A stretch of DNA of 64,000 nt. It comes from Stegostoma tigrinum. Its lineage: Eukaryota. Shown in pieces: positions 3,555 to 40,588 of this stretch. Each line of letters opens with the position of its first letter. The first letter of the stretch is position 1. Where the stretch lies: contig NC_081365.1 in NCBI RefSeq assembly GCF_030684315.1, positions 36,607,394 to 36,671,393 of the forward strand, written 5' to 3'. Under the pieces are notes generated by a model. That model saw only the letters and a list, made by a program, of their open reading frames with translations, ran no database searches and had not been told where the DNA came from. A program made the translations under genes and the position numbers.

Positions 3555-3945
3555 TTAGCAATAGAAAGCTAGCCACCAGGATACATGAACATCAACTAGC
3601 CACAAAACGACATGATCCACTATCACTAGTATCCTTACATATAGATGAGGAGGGACAACACATCCATCCTAGGACAAGCCAAACAGAGACACGCACGAGA
3701 ATTCCTAGAAGCACAGCATTCCAACCGGAATTCCATCAACAAACACATTGGCTCCAAATCAATCTACCATCCGCTGAGGAAAAAGAACAGGAAATGACAT
3801 CACCAACCCAAGGAAACCTAAACATATAAATAGAAAGCAGGACACAACACCAGCGCTTCGGCGGAGGCTGACTGATGATGTTACCTAGTATGGTGATGAA
3901 ATGTCTGAAAACTAACCTTCCAGCTCAGCGAGCAAACTCACATCC
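3555..3945 (+). mobile_element. Penelope-like element family A, 3' fragment (GIY-YIG C-terminus plus hammerhead)
   Basis: Encodes RKLATRIHEHQLATKRHDPLSLVSLH. Hammerhead motif at 3869-3908. Flanked by AGCAATAC at 3547-3554 and 3946-3953. Confidence 0.9.
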
Positions 3946-4771
3946 AGCAATACCTTTAATACACACTCCTGTGCAGTGTGGCTAGATACTTTTGTAGCAC
4001 TCCCCCACCAACCAACTTGAATGATGATATCATTCCTACCGCAGACTGGTTTCCATACTCGGCAAACTTGTTATTAACTAGCACCTATGAGATCAGGAAT
4101 GTACTAGTTGATCGAGAGGTCCACGTAACCAATGTAAAATCCCACAAAAGTAATGAAAGTGTAATGCAGGGTTTACACCACTTATTTATTTACAGCACAA
4201 ATCACTGAAATATTAATACAAACTTTGTCTTAAAACTTACCTGCAGAGAGCCTTCCCACCTGCACCCTCAACTGACTACACAAACATCAGGGATTGCAAA
4301 AATAGGGTAAAATTCTGATATGGGAAATATAATGTTCACTGATTTATCGAGTGTCAGTACATACGGTGCTGGTTAAAACAAAGTTTGCTGTACTTGTAGA
4401 CTTTAGTTTGGTTTAACATATAGTAACTTTCCACTTGAGAAAGTGGAGGGGTGGAGGCATTTTTTAAAGTAGTTTTTATTGCTCAGTAGTTCCACATCCA
4501 ATGACTTCAAATTCATATTTGGGAAACTGGCTACAAAACTCCATTTACCGATTTGGTGGCTTATGAAACAAGGTTGGGGTAGGGGGAGTATGAGTAACTA
4601 GAATATTTGTTGTATGACAGCTGGAATGCTGCTCAGGCCTTTGACTCCCAGCTCAGGTTACTTTGTGACAAAAAAAGCATGTAAAAATGTTGATTTAATA
4701 CTTAAATTTATAGTTTTAAAAGGCATTATTGGTCTGCACTAGACTAACTTTTCTATTTTTGTATCAATTAG

Positions 4772-14087: not shown

Positions 14088-14249
14088 CGATAACACAGTG
14101 TGGAGCTGGAGGAAGACAGCAGGCCAGGCAGCATCACAGCAGCAGGAAAGTTGATGTTTTGGGTCAGGCGTCAACTTTCCTGCTCCCTTCCTCCAGCTCC
14201 ACACTTATCTCCGACTCCAGCATCTGCAGTTCTTGCTCTGCTGGAGCAA
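14088..14249. mobile_element. Degenerate fold-back Penelope-derived element (family B-related)
   Basis: Inverted segments GTGTGGAGCTGGAGGAAG/CTTCCTCCAGCTCCACAC and GCAGGAAAGTTGA/TCAACTTTCCTGC. TSD TTTTCAGAACAG at 14076-14087 and 14250-14261. Confidence 0.75.
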
Positions 14250-16179: not shown

Positions 16180-16406
16180 TTTCAGTGATAATGGGAACTG
16201 CAGATGCCGGAGAATCTAAGATAATAAAATGTGAGGCTGGATGAACACAGCAGGCCCAGCAGCATCTCAGGAGCACAAAAGCTGACATTTCGGGCCTAGA
16301 CCCTTCATCAGAGAGCCTGATGAAGGGTCTAGGCCCGAAATGTCAGCTTTTGTGCTCCCGAGATGCTGCTGGGCCTGTTATGTTCATCCAGCCTCACATT
16401 TTATTA
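16180..16406. mobile_element. Fold-back Penelope-derived mini-element family B with hammerhead motifs
   Basis: Arms 16222-16311 and 16317-16406 are near-perfect inverted repeats. TSD TTAACAGCCAAATATG at 16164-16179 and 16404-16419. Confidence 0.9.
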
Positions 16407-22527: not shown

Positions 22528-22756
22528 CAGAGATAATGTGAACTGCAGATGCTGGAGAATCCAGGATAACAAAGTGTGAAGCTGGATGAACACAGCAGGC
22601 CAAGCAGCATCTCAGGAGCACAAAAGCTGATGTTTCGGGCCTAGACCCTTCATCAGAGAGGCTCTCTGATGAAGGGTCTAGGCCGAAACGTCAACTTTTG
22701 TGCTCCTGAGATGCTGCTTGGCCTGCTGTGTTCATCCAGCTTCACACTTTGTTATC
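22528..22756. mobile_element. Fold-back Penelope-derived mini-element family B with hammerhead motifs
   Basis: Arms 22565-22660 and 22662-22756 with a 1-nt loop and a 37-nt tail at 22528-22564. TSD TATATCATCAATAT at 22514-22527 and 22757-22770. Confidence 0.92.
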
Positions 22757-23249: not shown

Positions 23250-25330
23250 ATACACAGAAAAATCAGAGAGATGTACAGCACAGAAACTGGCCTCTCGGTC
23301 CAACTCGTCCAAGCCGACCAGATGTCATAAATAAATCTAGTTCTGTTTGCCATTATCTGGCTCCTGTCTGTCTGAATTCTTCCTTTGCATATAACCATTC
23401 AGATGTCTTTTAAATATTGTAATTGTACCAGCCTCCACCACTTCCCCTGGCAGCTCATTCCATACATGCACCACCCTCTGCGTGAAAGAGTTACCCCTTT
23501 CAACTTAAACCTGTTCCCTCTAGTTTTAGGCTTTTCCCCGGGTTGAGGGAGACCTTGCCTATTTACCCTATCCATGCCCCTCATGATTTTATAAACCTTC
23601 AGAAGGTCAGCCTCCAACATTCCAGGAAAAGTGGCACCTGTCTATTCAATCTGTCTATAACCCTAACCCTCCAACACTGGCAAAATCATTGTAAATCTTT
23701 TCTGAACCCTTTCAAGTTTCAGAACATCCTTCCTATTGCTGGGATACCAGAATTGCAAGCAATAGTCCAATACTCCAAAGGTGGCCTAACCAATGTCCTG
23801 TACATTTGCAACCTGACCTCCCAACGGTTAATTTCAACACAATGAACAATAAAAGCAAGCATACCAAGCATCTTCATCACTATACTATCCAATTGTGACT
23901 CCACTTTCAAGGAACTATGAGCCTGCACTCCAAGGTCTTTGTTCAGCAACACTCCCCAGGGCTAGCGAGTTTTGAGAAGATTCGTAGCTCAGGTTGAGGT
24001 TCTGGATGTGAGTTTGCTCACTGAGCTGGAAGGTTCGTTTTCAGACATTTCGTCACCATTCTAGGTAACATCATCAGTGAGCCTCCGGTGAAGCGCTGGT
24101 GTCACGTCCCGCTTTTTATTTATCTGTTTAGGTTTCCTTGGATTGATGTCATTTCCTGCATTGGTGATGTCATTTCCTGTTCTTTTTCTCAGAGGGTGGT
24201 AGATGGGTTCTAAATCAATGTGTTTGTTGATGGAGTTCCGGTTGGAATGCCATGCTTCTAGGAATTCTCATGCGTGTCTCTGTTTGGCTTGTCCTAGGGT
24301 GCATGTGTTGTCCCAATCAAAGTGGTGTCCTTCCTCATCTGTATGTAAGGATACTAGTGATAGTGGGTCATGTCACTCCCCAAGACCTTACCATTAAGTG
24401 TACAAGTCCTGCCCTGATTTTCCTTTCCAAAATGCAGCGTCTCTCATTTATCTAAATTAAACTCCATCTACCACTCCTTAGCCCATCTAACATAGAGACA
24501 AGATCCTGTTGTACTCGAGGTAACCTTCTCCACTGTCCACTTCACCTCCAATTTTGTTGTCTTTGGCAAGCTTACTAACCATATTGTCTACATTCGGATC
24601 CAAATCATTTATATTAAAATAACAAAATGCAGTGGACTCAGCACTGAATCTTATAGCACACCCATGGTCACAGGCCACCAGTCTGAAAAGCAACCCTCCA
24701 AGTGGCTAGTTCTCCCTGTATTCAATGCGATCTAATCTTGCTAACCAGTTTACCATGAAGAATCTTGTTGAATGCCTTACCAAAGTCCATAGAGATCATG
24801 TCGACTGCTCTGACCTTGTCAATCCTCTTTGTTACTTCTTCAAAAATCTCAATTAAGTTAGACAGACAGAATTTTCAACACACAAAGCCATGTTGACTAT
24901 TCTGAATCAGTCCTTGCCTTTCCAAATAAATGTAAACCCTGTCCCTCAGGATTCTCTCCACCAATGTGCCCACCACTAATTTCAGGTTCACCAGTCTATA
25001 GCTCCCTGGCTTTTCCTTCCCACCTTTCTTAAATAGTGGCACGGCATTAAACAACCTCTGGTCTTGCGGCACCTCAACTATGGCTATCGATGATACAAAT
25101 TTCTCAGCAAGGGGCCCAGCAATCACTTCCTTAACTTCCCACAGAGTTCCAGGTTATTTATGCATTTTAAGCCTTCCAGCACCACCACCTCTGTAATATG
25201 GATATTTTTCAAGATGTTGCTATTTCCCCACATTCTATATCTTCCATAGTACACACTGATGCAAAATACTCATTCGTATCTTTACCATTTCCTACAGTTC
25301 CACACATAGGCAGCCTTGTTGCTCTTTAAT
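23250..25330 (-). mobile_element. CR1 LINE RT/3' region, interrupted by a Penelope insertion
   Basis: Several minus-strand ORF pieces: PLFKKGGKEKPGSYRLVNL, SQHGFV, YRTLVRPPLEY, DLLKVYKIMRGMDRV. Confidence 0.9.
23963..24373 (-). mobile_element. Penelope-like element family A, tailed 3' fragment with hammerhead at 24041-24080
   Basis: Homologous to 36111-36500. TSD CACTCCCCA at 23950-23958 and 24374-24382, inside the CR1. Confidence 0.9.
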
Positions 25331-26298: not shown

Positions 26299-26349
26299 CT
26301 GGAACTCGGAGAAATCCTGACAATTCAGCTCCTCACTGGGCGCCGCCAT
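26299..26349 (-). CDS. MIX23: MIX23/CCDC58 mitochondrial matrix import factor, coding exon 1 of 5
   Basis: AAGATGGCG start context; encodes MAAPSEELNCQDFSEFQ; GTACGG donor; lies in a CpG island. Confidence 0.95.
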
Positions 26350-26776: not shown

Positions 26777-26912
26777 ATGTGGAGTTACGTGGGCCCAGTG
26801 GCCGGACGCCTGACCCTGGCGCTCAGCGCAGACCGACAGAGGCTCCAGCGGTTTTGCGGCAAACCCCCGCAGGGAGAAGGCTCGGTGACGCAGGCCAGAG
26901 CCCAGGCTGAAG
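26777..26912 (+). CDS. FAM162A: FAM162A coding exon 1 of 4 (mitochondrial presequence-like N-terminus)
   Basis: Encodes MWSYVGPVAGRLTLALSADRQRLQRFCGKPPQGEGSVTQARAQAE+G, with an FCxKP motif. The AG|GTACGC donor is phase 1 and fits the next exon. The start codon is the least certain part. Confidence 0.75.
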
Positions 26913-27148: not shown

Positions 27149-27334
27149 GATAATAAAATGTGAGGCTGGATGAACACAGCAGGCCAAGCAGCATCTCAGG
27201 AGCACAAAAGCTGACGTTTCGGGCCTAGACCCTTCATCATTTTGTGCTCCTGAGATGCTGCTTGGCCTGCTGTGTTCATCCAGCCTCACATTTTATTATC
27301 TTGGAATCTCCAGCATCTGCAGTTCCCATTATCT
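27149..27334. mobile_element. Fold-back Penelope-derived mini-element family B (apex partly deleted)
   Basis: Perfect inverted arms 27149-27209 and 27240-27300, with the tail on the right. TSD CTCAGCTACTTCGTA at 27134-27148 and 27335-27349. Confidence 0.9.
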
Positions 27335-34340: not shown

Positions 34341-34449
34341 ATTTGAGATGATTGATGCTGCAAGGAACAAGATGAGAGTGAAAGCGAGTTATTTTATGGT
34401 GATCATGACTGTTGTTGCCTGTATTGGAACAATAATCTCTGGGAAGAAG
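34341..34449 (+). CDS. FAM162A: FAM162A coding exon 3 of 4 (transmembrane segment)
   Basis: TTTCAG acceptor; encodes FEMIDAARNKMRVKASYFMVIMTVVACIGTIISGKK; GTAAGG donor. Confidence 0.96.
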
Positions 34450-36184
34450 GTAAGGGGAAATCCTACTAGCTGGTTCAGAATTGGAATAAATCCAGGTTGT
34501 TTGTTTTTTTTTCAACTTTATCTTCGATCCAGCTTGTCTCTAGTGACATAACTGATACTTGTACTTGTTTTGATCCTCAAAAAAGTGATCTGGATTAGTC
34601 ATAAGTTTTTAAAATACCATAATATGTGAACATTTGATTGAGATTTATTCTCACAATTCAAAATAAATCTAAATAAGTTTAAAGTACTTGGACTAGTCCC
34701 AAGCTTCACATGGAGCAGGGCTGTTTTTAAGGGCTTATTTTGTTTGAAAAGGATGGGTTTCACCTGTACTGAAGAGGAACCAATATCCTAGCAGGAACAT
34801 TCCCTAATTCTGATAGGGGAAACAGTAAACTATTAGGGGGAAAATCCTTGGTAGCAGACTAAATGGAAAGATAGATGAGGATGGTTTTTAAATTTTAAAA
34901 GAATAATTAAAAAAGACATAAGAGCAAGTCAGAGAATGAAGTACCTCTGAAGAATTAAACTGCATTTATTTCAATGCAAGGGGTCTTGCAGGTAAGGCCG
35001 AACTCAGCATGTTTGGGAACACGGGACTGGAACTTTGAAGCCATTACATTAAATGTGGCTGAGGGACGAACAGGACTAACAGCTTAATGTAAGATAACAA
35101 AGTGTGAAGCTGGATGAACACAGCAGGCCAAGCAGCATCTCAGAAGCACTTAATGTGCTGAGTTTTAGGTACAGTAGGAAGGATAGAAAAAGAGGCAACA
35201 GGAGGAAGAGTAGTGCTTTTAATTAAGGAAGACGTTACTGCTGTAACTAAAAGATATTTCTGACAAATGGTCCAGTGAAAATATTAGGAACAAAATGAAA
35301 GTAGAAATTAAAAATCCCTTTGGAATTGTACAGTGTTTCCTTCAATAGTCAGAAGGAAATTGAGGAACAAATGTAGCGAGATTTCAGATATACACAAGAA
35401 TAAAATTTGTAAGGGGAGATTTTAGTTACTCAAACACTGACTGGGATTACCATGGTGTTAAAGGTTTGGATGGTGAAGAATTTACTAAAATTTTCTTGAA
35501 CCCGTGTAAATATTCCTACTAGAGATGGAGCAAAAGTTGACTCTGTTTGGTAATAAGACAGGGCAAATGACTGAAGTGATAGTACGGGAATACTTTGGGT
35601 CTAGTGATCATAATTTTTTGAAAAACATTGTGGAAAGGATAAGTCTTCCATTTAAAAATTAATTTTTTTTAATGATGAGACAAAAATTGATTGGAGTAGA
35701 CCCTTTGCAGGAAAAGGGATGTCTGAAATGGGATGTTTTCAAAAATGTGATAACTAGTTCTGCCTTATGTTTTGGTTAATAAAAAGTAAAGCTGGGAGAA
35801 TTAAAGAACAATGGATGAATAAAGATAGAGGTTCTAGTCCAGAGTTTAAAAAAAAATCACATTAGATATAGACAACAGTTCAAATGAATCTCTTGAATGG
35901 CGAAGAGCAGCGTAGGGGCATTGATAAAACAGAGATCAGGAAGGCAGAGAGGATATGAGAATCTTACTTGTCAAGTCTAAGAATAATCCAAATAGAACCT
36001 GTTAGTACGTTTAAGAGCAAGAGAACCACTAGAGAGTAGGACCCCTTAAAAGTCAACAAGGTCATCTTTGCGTTGAACCTGAAGAGGTGGGAGAGATATT
36101 AAAATGAATAGCGAGTTGATAAGATTTGTAGCTCAGGTTGAGATTCTGGATGCGAGTTTGCTTGCTGAGCTGGAAGGTTAGTTT

Positions 36185-36224
36185 TCAGACGTTTCGTCAC
36201 CATTCTAGGTAACATCATCAGTGA
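36185..36224 (-). ncRNA. Minimal type-I hammerhead ribozyme motif
   Basis: TCA-CTGATGA-T-GTTACC tagaat GGTGAC-GAAA-CG-TC-TGA on the minus strand. Confidence 0.75.
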
Positions 36225-36908
36225 GCCTCCGACGAAGCGCTGGCGTTATGCCTGCTTTCTATTTAGCTGGTTAGGTTTCCTTGGGTTGGTGATGTCGTTT
36301 TCTGTTCTTTTTCTCAGAGGATGGTAGATTGATTTGGAGCCAATGTGTTTGTTGGAGTTCCGGTTGAAATGCCATGCTTCTAGGCATTCTCGTGCGTGTC
36401 TGTTTGGCTTGTCCTAGGATGGACGTGTTGTCCCAATCAAAGTGGTGTCCTTCCTCATCTGTATGTAAGGATACGAGTGATAGTGGGTCATGTCGTTTTG
36501 TGGCTAGTTGATGTTCATGTATCCTGGTGGCTAGCTTTCTGCCTGCTTGTCCAATGTAGTTCGTCATCTACAAAATACCTTGCAAGAGTTGTGACAAACA
36601 CTACATTGGACTAACAGGCAGAAAGCTAGCCACAAAACGACATGACCCACTATCACTCGTATCCTTACATACAGATGAGGAAGGACACCACTTTGATTGG
36701 GACAACACGTCCATCCTAGGACAAGCCAAACAGACACGCACGAGAATGCCTAGAAGCATGGCATTTCAACCGGAACTCCAACAAACACATTGGCTCCAAA
36801 TCAATCTACCATCCTCTGAGAAAAAGAACAGAAAACGACATCACCAACCCAAGGAAACCTAACCAGCTAAATAGAAAGCGGGCATAACGCCAGCGCTTTG
36901 TCGGAGGC

Positions 36909-36948
36909 TCACTGATGATGTCACCTAGAATGGTGACGAAACGTCTGA
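36909..36948 (+). ncRNA. Minimal type-I hammerhead ribozyme motif
   Basis: TCA-CTGATGA-T-GTCACC tagaat GGTGAC-GAAA-CG-TC-TGA: intact core, perfect 6-bp stem II and a GUC site, with predicted cleavage after 36945. Confidence 0.8.
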
Positions 36949-37606
36949 AAACTAACCTTCCAGCTCAGCGAGCAAACTTGCATCCATTAAAATGAATATT
37001 TTACAAGAAATGGAAGCTAGAGAATTTTGGTGATGTTTTGAAAACAGTTTACATAACAGAAGAGGAATGGTGGATAAATCTCTGGGACCTGATCTAGTGT
37101 ATCCCAGGATTTTGTGGGAAGTTAGGGAGGAAATTGCAGAACCCCCCACAGAAGTATTTGTATCATCTATAAATATGGGTGATGTGCCAAATGGCTGGAG
37201 AGTAGCATGTGTTGTGCCTTTAAGGGATGTAAGGAGAAGCCTGGGAACTATAGACCTGTGAGCCTGACTTTGGTGGTGGGTAAGTTGTTGGAAGTGATTT
37301 TAAAGATAGGATTGACATGCATTTGGAGAGGCAAAGAATGATGAGGGATAGTCAGTGTGGTTTTGTGTAAGGGGAAATGGTGTTTCACAAACTTGGAGGT
37401 AACCAAGAAGATTGAGGGCAGAGTAATTGACATTGTTTACTTGGACTTTTTAAAATGCCTTTGACAAGGTTCCCCATGGTAAACTAATTCAGGTGAGCTT
37501 GCCAATTGGATACAAAGTTGGCTTAATGGCAGGAGATGGTGGAGGGTTGTTTTTTTTCTGGCAGTGTTCCAGAGATCAGTGCTAGGTCCACTTTTGCCAT
37601 TTGTAT

Positions 37607-37914
37607 GGGTGGCACAGTGGCTTAGTGGTTAGCACTGCTGCCTCACAGCACCAGGGACCCAGGTTCAATTCCAGCCTTGGGTGACTGTGTGGAATTAGCA
37701 TATTCTCCATATGTCTGCATGGGTTTCCTCCTACAGTTTAAAGATGTGCAGTTAGGTGGACTAGTCATGCTAAATCACCCATTGTGTTCAGGGATATGTA
37801 GGTTAGGTGTGTTAGTAATAAGGAAATGGAGGGATAAGGCAGGCGATGGGTCTGGGTGCAATGCTGTGAGGTTTCGTGTACTTGTTAGGCCATATGGCTT
37901 GGATGGGTTCTATG
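37607..37914 (+). mobile_element. HE1-like tRNA-derived SINE nested in a CR1
   Basis: Box A TGGCTTAGTGG, box B GGTTCAATTCC, conserved core and TTCTATG tail. Confidence 0.85.
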
Positions 37915-40486
37915 ATCTGAAGATAATCTAAATAAATGATTTAGATGAGAATATAGAAAGCATCACAAAAGTTATGAATGACACCAAGATTGGCCAGTGA
38001 AGAAGCTTATCTAAGATTACAAAAAAAACTTAATTAGTTGGTTCAAAGGGCTGAAGAAAGCTAAGACTTGTACAATTAAAAATATAGAGCCTTAGGTAGT
38101 GTTAGAGAAGAGACCTAGTGGATCAAGTACATAATTCTTTAAAGTTTGTATCACATACTTAACATGGTTAAGGGGTTTTGAATGCTTTCCTTCGTTACTT
38201 AGCCTATTGAGTTCAGGGGTTGGGACATTACGTTGAGGTTGTACAGGACACAGAAACCAGTTCTGGTCACCCAGTTATTAGTAAAGACAGTAAGTTGGAG
38301 AAGGTTCAAAATAGATATAGCAGGCTGTTGCTGGAAACGAAGGGTTTGAGTTATAAGGAGAGCCTGGATAGGCTGGGACTTTAACTAGAGCATAGGAGGG
38401 TGAGGGATGACCTTTTATGCAGGCTTAAAATCATGAGGGGTATAGATAAGGTGAATGTAGATGTCTTTTTGTAGGATGGTACATTAAGACTAAGAGCATA
38501 TTTTTAAGTTGAGAAAGAGTCAAAAAAGACATGGGGGCAATTTTTTTAAAAACTAGTTTCTTGTGCAGAATGATCTTCTGGAGGGAGTAGTGGATGTAGG
38601 TACCCTTACAGTGTCTAAAAGACATTTATCTAAGTACATGATTAAGAAATGTTTGGAGGAATATGGGCCAATCACTGGCAGAGGGAATATTTAGGTTGAG
38701 GATTATGGTTGGCATGGACTGGTTGGTCCGAAAAATCTTTTTCCAAGCACTGTGACTGTGCTAATTTTTGGTTTTGAGGGTTACTATTTTTTCATTTTCA
38801 CACTTCAAGTATAGAAGATGATGTCTCCACCTTCTAATATTTTTCTTTAAAAGGATACTTTGGTTGATAAATGGCACACTTACCATACGTTGTCCATATT
38901 GAGATCCCAATAGAGACCTTTGCAAGTCACCACTAGTCACATCATCTTAATACTTAAGTTTTTGCTTGTTATTCGTAGTTGAACTCTTGACACAGCTAAT
39001 ATCTTATGAAAGTCCATGAATATAAAGTGTTGACACTTGCCCTGACCACTACTTAGTCACCTCTTCAAAAAGTTCAGTTTGCCAGGCACGATCTATTATT
39101 CACAAATTTTGTCCGACTTGGAAGATTTTCAGGGCCTCAGTCACATTATCCTTAATGACAGACCCTAATAACTTCTGATACTAAAAGTACAGTGTTCAGT
39201 GGGATTTAGCTGTTGCCCCACGCTAGTTTGCTGCCCAAATATTTCGCAAGAATCTGTGTATTCTTTAAATTCCTAAATTAACTTCCATCACCTTTTTACA
39301 ATGTTACTGATCAGATACAATACTCCAGTTGTCACGTAACACTTCAATTTTATTAGCATGGTTTCCATTTTGCTACATTTTAATCTAGGTTAATTCAAAC
39401 CTTGTGCCAGTGTTCCAAATGAAAATTACTACTATTTTCCTAGCAGTGGCTCGCCTATATCCCAAAATTAAAATTTTCCCAGTCCCGCTATCAATTGCCA
39501 GAGATAGAATGATGTTTTAGACAACTATTTTAACTAACTGGAAATTAACTGAACTTTGCAACACCTTTTTCTTCAACATTTGGGGTTTGCAGAAATTTTC
39601 TCTAGACCGGGGCTGGCTTTCAGTGGCATGACCTTGCAGCTCCAATGAAGTCCTGAAACACCATCCGTGTAGCATTTCAGCATCAGACCAATATAGTAGT
39701 TACTGGACTGGAAGGGAGTGATAATTAATCTGGACTTGTTCCAATCCTCCTCTCTTCTGTGGGTTGTGCCACTGCCACCACCAGTTAGTGTTATTTACTG
39801 CTATGGAAAGGGAGATGGTAAAGTTACCATAGCTTCTCAGGCCATAAAGTTGTGCTGTCATTAGAGAGATGCCTGCTGCTCCTTTAACATGAAGGTCACC
39901 ACACCTAAAGCCAGGGGAGCAGAATCTGTCATGTAACTTCAGCTAGCATCACAAACTAGCTATCCAGCCAACTGAGTGAAACTGACATGGTGGGCTGAAT
40001 ACTGACAATGCAAAAGGAAGCTATTCAGTGAACATGTGTTCAGAAGAGAACAAAAGTTATTGATCCTAGCTCTTTTGCTGCTAAATCTAGCAATTTCTTA
40101 ATACAGGCTAATGTATAACAAGTATAAGCTTGAGATTTGAAACAGGTGTCATGTGTGGCTACTCTAATGTGGTAATAATGATCAGGATGGCAACTTTGTC
40201 TGAAATGGGTAATGTTTGTGGCAGTGTAACGTAAAAGATTATACAGTAATAAGCATATTTTGATCAAGCAGCAAAAAAGTGTGTTTCCCCTTCAAAGTCT
40301 TTCACTTTGACATATACATATGCTTGAAATTAAAGTTAAGTTTCAGGCTGTGGCTCAAAATCACAGTAATGATAATACTGCATGAGGCTATTAAATGCAG
40401 AAGAACATTGAAACATTCAAAGGCAGAATATATTCATTAGCCAAAACTGAGTGTACTAACTTTTTATTTTCCATATTTGGCTGCAG

Positions 40487-40588
40487 GCTGCCAATAGACA
40501 CGAATCCTTGACATCCATCAACATGGCAAAAAAAGCCCGATGGAAAGAGGAGAAACAGCAGGAAGCAGAAGACACCAAAAGGCAATGA
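40487..40588 (+). CDS. FAM162A: FAM162A coding exon 4 of 4
   Basis: TACTAAC branch point at 40454-40460 and CTGCAG acceptor; encodes AANRHESLTSINMAKKARWKEEKQQEAEDTKRQ*. The spliced protein is 151 aa. An AATAAA lies at 41017-41022. Confidence 0.95.
   Translation, partial: AANRHESLTSINMAKKARWKEEKQQEAEDTKRQ

Follow-up and report, generated by a model that had tools for sequence, protein, structure and literature searches.

In the Penelope-like elements (PLEs) Pen2 and Pen2a_Av of Adineta vaga and Penelope of Drosophila virilis, an inverted 5'-truncated copy adjoins the element, a tail of 30-40 nt is found at one end only, and one target-site duplication (TSD) surrounds the whole (PMC3846280, PMC8557442, PMC3681739). 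How the inverted Penelope structures arise is described as undefined in PMC8557442 and left open by PMC11167929. The element treated in the latter, Poseidon_Ac (PAc) of Anolis carolinensis, belongs to the Penelope/Poseidon clade and encodes a reverse transcriptase (RT) with a C-terminal GIY-YIG endonuclease (EN). Minimal type-I hammerheads are carried by metazoan PLEs; monomers of this form were inactive and needed a dimer partner, and in Schistosoma dual motifs on opposite strands lie 100-700 bp apart (PMC4209133). The sole Poseidon hammerhead tested cleaved only with the element's protein (PMC11167929).

The locus described here lies in a window of 64,000 nt, the whole stretch of Stegostoma tigrinum DNA that was analyzed. 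It is almost certainly a single, dead, 5'-truncated insertion of Penelope/Poseidon type, arranged head-to-head as is usual in its family and with no job of its own. An inverted 5'-truncated copy with a one-sided 30-40-nt tail and a single TSD is typical by PMC8557442 and PMC3846280, where the head-to-head architecture has already been published, and the locus itself is ordinary. The structure reported by the original prediction is real, and its noteworthiness was overstated. The shark family differs from Pen2/Pen2a_Av and D. virilis Penelope in its TSDs, mostly 11-14 bp against 8-10 bp, and in its thousands of copies against a handful (PMC3846280, PMC8557442, PMC3681739). Because copies are so numerous, a rule governing their two ends can be counted in the shark.

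Structure of the locus

The coordinates of the features are given in Table 1. Inverted-repeat search and global alignment recovered the predicted pair of inverted arms around a 39-nt spacer, matching over 361 nt at 98.6% identity (36147-36507 against 36626-36986), with a further inverted match (36515-36560 against 36600-36645) flanking the 39-nt gap. The predicted GIY-YIG motif, VIYKIPCKSCDKHYIG, is present in sense and begins in the spacer and continues into the right arm, which makes the spacer further 5' sequence of that arm and not an insert of foreign origin. In the global alignment the arms differ by 5 substitutions in the 361-nt part and by 2 nearer the centre, and the right arm has lost 27 nt after 36625, a deletion that had previously gone unmentioned. 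Four of the five distal differences read as CpG transitions. The left arm contains the C-terminal endonuclease coding sequence and the pLTR.

The tail had been placed on the left arm only, and so it is: its 36 nt match the continuation of the family and stop where the T end of the family lies, about +113 relative to hammerhead C3. The direct repeat around the locus, ATTAAAATGAATA, is 13 bp long, one terminal A being common with the element, so that 12 or 13 bp may be given for a TSD earlier put at 12. This one TSD encloses both arms and supports the proposed single insertion event.

Table 1. Features of the locus, the host gene exons and the LINE copies discussed in the text
Feature	Position	Strand	Basis or content
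TSD, left copy	36098..36110	+	direct-repeat search; TSD null 0/400
36-nt tail of left (tailed, T) arm	36111..36146	-	codes N-terminal ORF residues
Left arm, 5'-truncated element end	36147..36560	-	about -345 to +74 in family coordinates
Left minimal hammerhead with distal helix I	36173..36230	-	core 36185-36224, motif scan and fold
39-nt 'spacer', the right arm's extra 5' sequence	36561..36599	+	
GIY-YIG core with two cysteines of the CCHH motif (VIYKIPCKSCDKHYIG)	36563..36610	+	read from sequence
Right arm (short, S end about +74)	36600..36986	+	frameshifted endonuclease remnant
Right minimal hammerhead with distal helix I	36903..36960	+	core 36909-36948, motif scan and fold
TSD, right copy	36986..36998	+	direct-repeat search
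Host FAM162 exon 3	34341..34449	+	PF06388 match and gene model
Host FAM162 exon 4, coding part	40487..40588	+	PF06388 match and gene model
Tx1-like LINE copies	L061:2656-7967, L062, L130, L177-L180, L182, L183-L212		

The hammerheads

A complete hammerhead core in each arm, as predicted, was found on both strands by motif scan, consisting of CTGATGA, a 6-bp stem II and GAAAC-GTC. The left hammerhead (C3 36221, cut site after 36188) is antisense to the host gene and the right one (C3 36912, cut site after 36945) is sense; the latter overlaps the stop codon of the ORF (TAG 36926-36928) as well as the ATG of the next unit (36915/36918). The assignment to the minimal type-I form agrees with the description in PMC4209133: the core boxes CUGAUGA and GAAA, stem II with a G10.1-C11.1 pair, an extra base after position 9 and before stem II, helix I, and a palindromic stem III (15.2-16.2) without loop 3. 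Stem II and distal helix I appear in the folds. In sequence, no structural difference is apparent between the locus hammerheads and those that PMC4209133 describes.

Searching Rfam, in line with a check put forward with the original prediction, detected no hammerhead in the locus at gathering score or at E<=10. This silence is expected from the minimal form, which lacks a helix III loop. Matches to Rfam miRNAs at the palindrome centre were rejected, as they merely reflect the hairpin. A non-LTR retrozyme, defined by head-to-tail tandem units with a type-I hammerhead each (bioRxiv 10.64898/2026.07.22.740005), was also rejected, since the arms here are head-to-head and coding.

Family and clade

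In the genome of 3.2 Gb, the exact hammerhead 20-mer occurs 11,039 times (reversed control 0), and the 28-mer of a second hammerhead family has 92,176 exact matches. Penelope-like origin, as first suggested, is supported by the family copies. Full-length units of 2.5 kb encode an RT together with a C-terminal GIY-YIG, with the ORF starting inside the hammerhead; a single ORF with both domains is found in copies L168, L163, L169 and L173 (RVT_1, E 2e-11), and PF01541 gave a weak match, under the cut-off (E 0.0023), on the relative L063. All of the family copies read were broken, and the window copy keeps the endonuclease end only.

Family ORFs contain the CCHH motif VIYKIPCKNCDKHYIG...RIHEH...H, with two cysteines between GIY and YIG, and ILPADKGR (DKG motif) before the RT. 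The RT-EN linker of L173, L078 and L079 appears by eye free of a CX2-5CxxC zinc finger, and EN is C-terminal. Tandem hammerheads 2.5 kb apart indicate a pLTR in L168 and L163, and L163 also has an inverted pLTR. By the CCHH/DKG and clade motif definitions taken from PMC8557442, the family is of Penelope/Poseidon type at the level of sequence motifs. Among named homologues, those nearest to the family's protein come from carpet sharks (92-57% identity), then flatworms, in records without clade labels.

Several observations accompany this assignment. After the carpet sharks, the closest named homologues of the L173 protein are trematode and cestode PLE proteins, at about 45-54% identity. In the full-length units L168, L163 and L169, the hammerhead contains the stop of one ORF together with the start of the next; besides folding as a ribozyme, it is thus read in two frames. 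Two lone copies of the same family, 85-88% identical to the locus, lie elsewhere in the window (3563-3947 and 23963-24374), one with the short end and one tailed.

The likeness to Poseidon_Ac is drawn from its published description. Both have an RT with a C-terminal GIY-YIG, an ORF that begins at hammerhead stem II, AT-rich targets, and ends that fall within the start of the ORF, at two sites separated by about 36 nt and close to an AC-rich stem-loop. Counted from the beginning of the ORF, the shark sites are at about 70-75 and 105-110 nt, and the distal PAc site at 111-118 nt (PMC11167929). The shark family differs in that inverted pairs dominate and the ORF reaches its stop within the next hammerhead, leaving it without a non-coding 3' UTR.

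Ends of paired copies

A set of 108 loci was mapped onto a natural full-length copy, comprising 80 insertions behind the first 100 hammerhead matches (exact 20-mer) of contig C1 (first 27 Mb) and 28 loci found by similarity, the studied locus included; the sample is not random and over-represents pairs. Adjacent head-to-head pairs make up 64 of the 108 loci and 48 of the 80 sampled insertions, or 57 of the 80 if interrupted pairs are counted by eye. Ends fall into two classes, T at about +113 from hammerhead C3 and S at about +74 to +78.

Among the 64 pairs, 57 are T/S, 6 are S/S and 1 is T/T. All six S/S pairs, in which the T arms are interrupted, become T/S when the alignment is carried across an inserted LINE or a 33-nt insert. 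The lone T/T pair lacks a TSD and belongs to a larger duplication. When three T/S pairs with the second end hidden by a LINE are set aside, the T/S combination holds in 60 of the 61 pairs that can be resolved (binomial test against free choice, P 5e-17). In the second hammerhead family, 30 pairs comprised 24 T/S and 6 T/unclassified, with 0 T/T and 0 S/S. The window also contains short head-to-head palindromes of this second family (22533-22756, 27149-27332, 16188-16406 and 14089-14232), each with one long and one short end; the first two have TSDs of 13-15 bp.

TSDs of at least 11 bp surround 52 of 57 comparable pairs, against 0 of 400 mismatched-flank controls, and measure 11-14 bp in 51 of the 57. 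The 5' ends of paired arms correlate (rho 0.56) and lie at most 40 nt apart in 25 of 57 pairs, compared with 5.3 after shuffling. They are not nested: T is longer in 26 pairs, S in 25 (including the studied locus), and 6 are equal. T arms may be as short as 23 nt and S is frequently longer by hundreds of nucleotides. About half of the pairs are very unequal, by up to 1.5 kb. Among lone copies, S ends are roughly as frequent as T ends (about 11 each, by eye); S is therefore a start site in its own right. Central loops of 1 nt occur in three pairs, and a short-loop hairpin geometry at 9 of 64 centres.

Two further features were seen at the inner ends. Between the arms of L061, L007, L008, L060 and L123 the centres are complex, with several short template-jump fragments in both orientations. 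The 5' truncation points also seem clustered at family positions of about -400 to -340 (two bins of 50 nt hold 21 of the 128 arm ends; the studied locus, L003, L061, L101, L103, L108, L111 and L126), which is partly a selection effect of the similarity search.

Formation of the palindrome

The pairs are best explained by double-nick priming at two sites of one RNA followed by head-to-head joining, a model we infer with a probability of roughly 0.6. The RT-GIY-YIG protein would nick both target strands 12-13 nt apart, and the 3' end at each nick would prime reverse transcription on element RNA, most likely the same molecule. One cDNA would start at the tail site T and the other about 36 nt upstream at S, in the AC-rich loop. 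The two antisense cDNAs, on opposite target strands, would stop near the same point and be joined head-to-head via short microhomologies, and fill-in would leave an inverted repeat that has a single tail and is enclosed by one TSD. The present state would then reflect later deletions at the centre, decay of CpG sites and, probably, conversion between the arms. Coupled priming of this kind would explain at once why the copy is inverted, why the tail is on one side and why there is a single TSD.

The T/S combination and the correlated, non-nested 5' ends argue for this model, as does the anole Poseidon protein, which nicks and extends both target strands in vitro, was modeled as a dimer, and initiates reverse transcription at two internal sites that delimit the tail (PMC11167929). 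Against it, the start site in that system was equal between the strands and coupling of the two primings is absent from the data (PMC11167929). Arms unequal by up to 1.5 kb also mean that a common stop point is not general.

L1 twin priming offers a parallel: both target nicks prime cDNA on one RNA, and the product has one TSD and an inversion joined by microhomology. Both nicks, one RNA and one TSD would be common to L1 and the shark family. The two parts of an L1 inversion do not overlap, whereas both shark cDNAs would start at the 3' end and so give an inverted duplication.

The strongest rival, which we regard as possible but distinctly less probable, is fold-back: one cDNA, or antisense RNA as proposed for rotifer Penelopes (PMC3846280), would prime itself and be copied back to S, where resolution by the endonuclease would end the copy, and later central deletions would make the arms unequal either way. 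PMC8557442 presents the tail as a resolution product, which fits this scheme. It would account for the strict T/S combination, the correlated 5' ends and the hairpin-like centres, and the private variants common to both arms here, 8 rare substitutions and 3 deletions, are in its favor. Copying back predicts, however, a T arm at least as long as the S arm at the 5' side, and the 25 pairs with a longer S arm require later deletions. Lone S-ended copies are common and poorly explained, as are the 1-nt central loops, a loop of that size being too tight for fold-back priming. Palindrome centres do suffer asymmetric deletion, and the non-nesting of 5' ends could have a later origin in this way. At the studied locus, the centre is open to reading as a hairpin that has a TT loop and has lost about 40 nt from the T arm, a reading that turns on one informative base.

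Double priming on two separate RNAs, with the start site of each protomer set by its position in the dimer, is improbable. The very unequal arms of about half the pairs suit separate templates, and so do the few private variants shared in 18 long asymmetric pairs (median 0.24%). The excess of near-equal 5' ends is unexpected from independent templates, and it is priming at two sites of one RNA that we prefer.

The arms of the studied locus are 1.8% apart and 5.2-5.4% from the family majority. Arm divergence after insertion was compared in pairs with at least 250 nt of overlap. Tight palindromes have closer arms (median 2.4% against 4.5%; n 16 and 18, P 0.003); their shared private variants are higher, without significance (P 0.16), and show no gradient from the centre. 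The likeness of the arms fits conversion between them as well as youth combined with a one-off source, and arm identity should not be used as a measure of age. A possible sibling was sought with a 30-mer holding two arm-shared variants; its one other occurrence is only 85% alike and was rejected. The source copy was not found among the 40 scored of 2,957 candidates, the best of which was 95% identical.

Host gene and possible function

Exons matching PF06388 give a clean GT-AG gene model with 4 exons and 151 aa, and the element sits in its intron 3 (34450-40486). The location given before, FAM162A intron 3, holds as to the intron and the FAM162 family; the 'A' would follow from head-to-head synteny with MIX23/CCDC58. 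A search for the MIX23 family matched nowhere, controls included. At 26299-26349 (-) and 26777-26912 (+) in the window, a short exon that presumably resembles the start of MIX23/CCDC58 stands head-to-head with the FAM162 gene. The human FAM162 gene has five coding exons, against four in the shark model.

In the host pre-mRNA the arms would pair into a long hairpin, which would be spliced out. The predicted fold, with a minimum free energy of -786.6 kcal/mol (z -64) and both cores paired, bears out the hairpin expected by the original prediction. The ribozyme sequestration proposed along with it probably has nothing to switch off. Only the right hammerhead is in sense in this transcript, its inverted partner gives no tandem dimer, monomers of this form were inactive (PMC4209133), and the anole ribozyme needed a protein; by this analogy, the lone minimal hammerhead is probably inactive anyway. 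Of the ADAR editing and small-RNA silencing also proposed for the locus, the latter would have a precedent in the siRNAs from inverted Penelope copies in Drosophila (PMC3681739).

That the locus is a regulatory device, with an intronic hairpin that holds the ribozyme off and tunes FAM162 or seeds silencing of the family, is very improbable. The stability of the hairpin, arms closer to each other than to the family majority, and the siRNAs from inverted Penelope copies in Drosophila (PMC3681739) would be in keeping with such a role. Judging from the counts, however, thousands of similar structures exist in the genome, and a special role for one hairpin among them is unlikely. Low arm divergence is common to other tight palindromes and needs no selection, four of the five distal differences are CpG transitions, and the minimal monomers were inactive when tested (PMC4209133).

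An assembly artefact, in which a read was copied back on itself, is scarcely credible: the centre junction is absent among the contig pieces listed (66,216 further pieces exist), but the TSD, the one-sided tail, the 7 substitutions and 27-nt indel between the arms and like architecture at 60 other loci all contradict it, as do a contig of run X1, perhaps the assembly's own sample, that bridges the left junction (35810-36145) and a contig of sample S2 that extends 28 nt past it. Contigs of the sequencing runs were compared with the left arm and centre, the right arm lying outside the stretch used. In run X6 a contig aligned to host FAM162 exon 3 only and none to unique intron DNA; for organism B (X9), no contig aligned to unique flank at 95%. 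These comparisons say nothing on expression, editing or insertion age.

A LINE inserted in the hammerhead

Many PLE arms, all outside the window, are interrupted by a Tx1-like LINE of about 5.3 kb, the copies of which are 91-97% alike and inserted at one site of the PLE hammerhead. Tandem LINE copies occur in L080, L186, L187 and L209, and both arms are struck in L062. Of 30 LINE 3' ends selected with sequence of the LINE itself (209 exact matches), 29 lead directly into the 3' strand of stem II of the hammerhead, 3 of them in the form of the LINE's own target-like head. Junctions of poly(A) with the target gave 401 exact matches. The LINE head resembles the target and, by eye, keeps helix I pairing; in stem III it has A for G in 14 of 15 5' junctions. 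The proteins are an APE-RT ORF2 and a zinc-knuckle/ZCCHC3-like ORF1, and one homologue is named TX1 149 kDa, at 36%.

In PMC4494074, target-specific Tx1 families are those with one target in more than 20% of flanks, a proportion that the shark LINE exceeds. Tx1 families targeting other elements include Tx1L in Tx1D and Tx1-Mar in Mariner-N4_AMi, and Keno targets U2 (PMC4494074). The shark LINE resembles the known target-specific Tx1 LINEs in its single insertion site in another mobile element, and differs from those described there in that this site is a PLE hammerhead. By title and abstract, no hammerhead-targeting Tx1 and no description of the T/S rule were found among the open papers listed, a scope that leaves subscription papers, Repbase Reports and Dfam outside.

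Implications

At about even odds, both parts of the following account are correct: palindromes would form from one RNA with two start sites, each used once by one staggered nick, and the Tx1-like LINE would have adopted the hammerhead as its integration site, its target-like head keeping helix I, breaking the stem III palindrome, and possibly letting it ride Penelope transcripts uncut.

The value of the family is that, with PMC11167929 and PMC8557442 leaving unsettled how inverted Penelope structures arise, its copies give countable rules. One T end and one S end, a 12-13-bp stagger, and correlated, non-nested 5' ends are directly testable in the existing in vitro system. If coupled double priming is true, the strict T/S rule in two shark families would be its genomic signature. 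With at least 11,039 and 92,176 hammerhead matches, the two families could give rise to much double-stranded RNA from introns and to many unstable palindromes, in a genome that also holds a LINE targeting ribozyme sequence.
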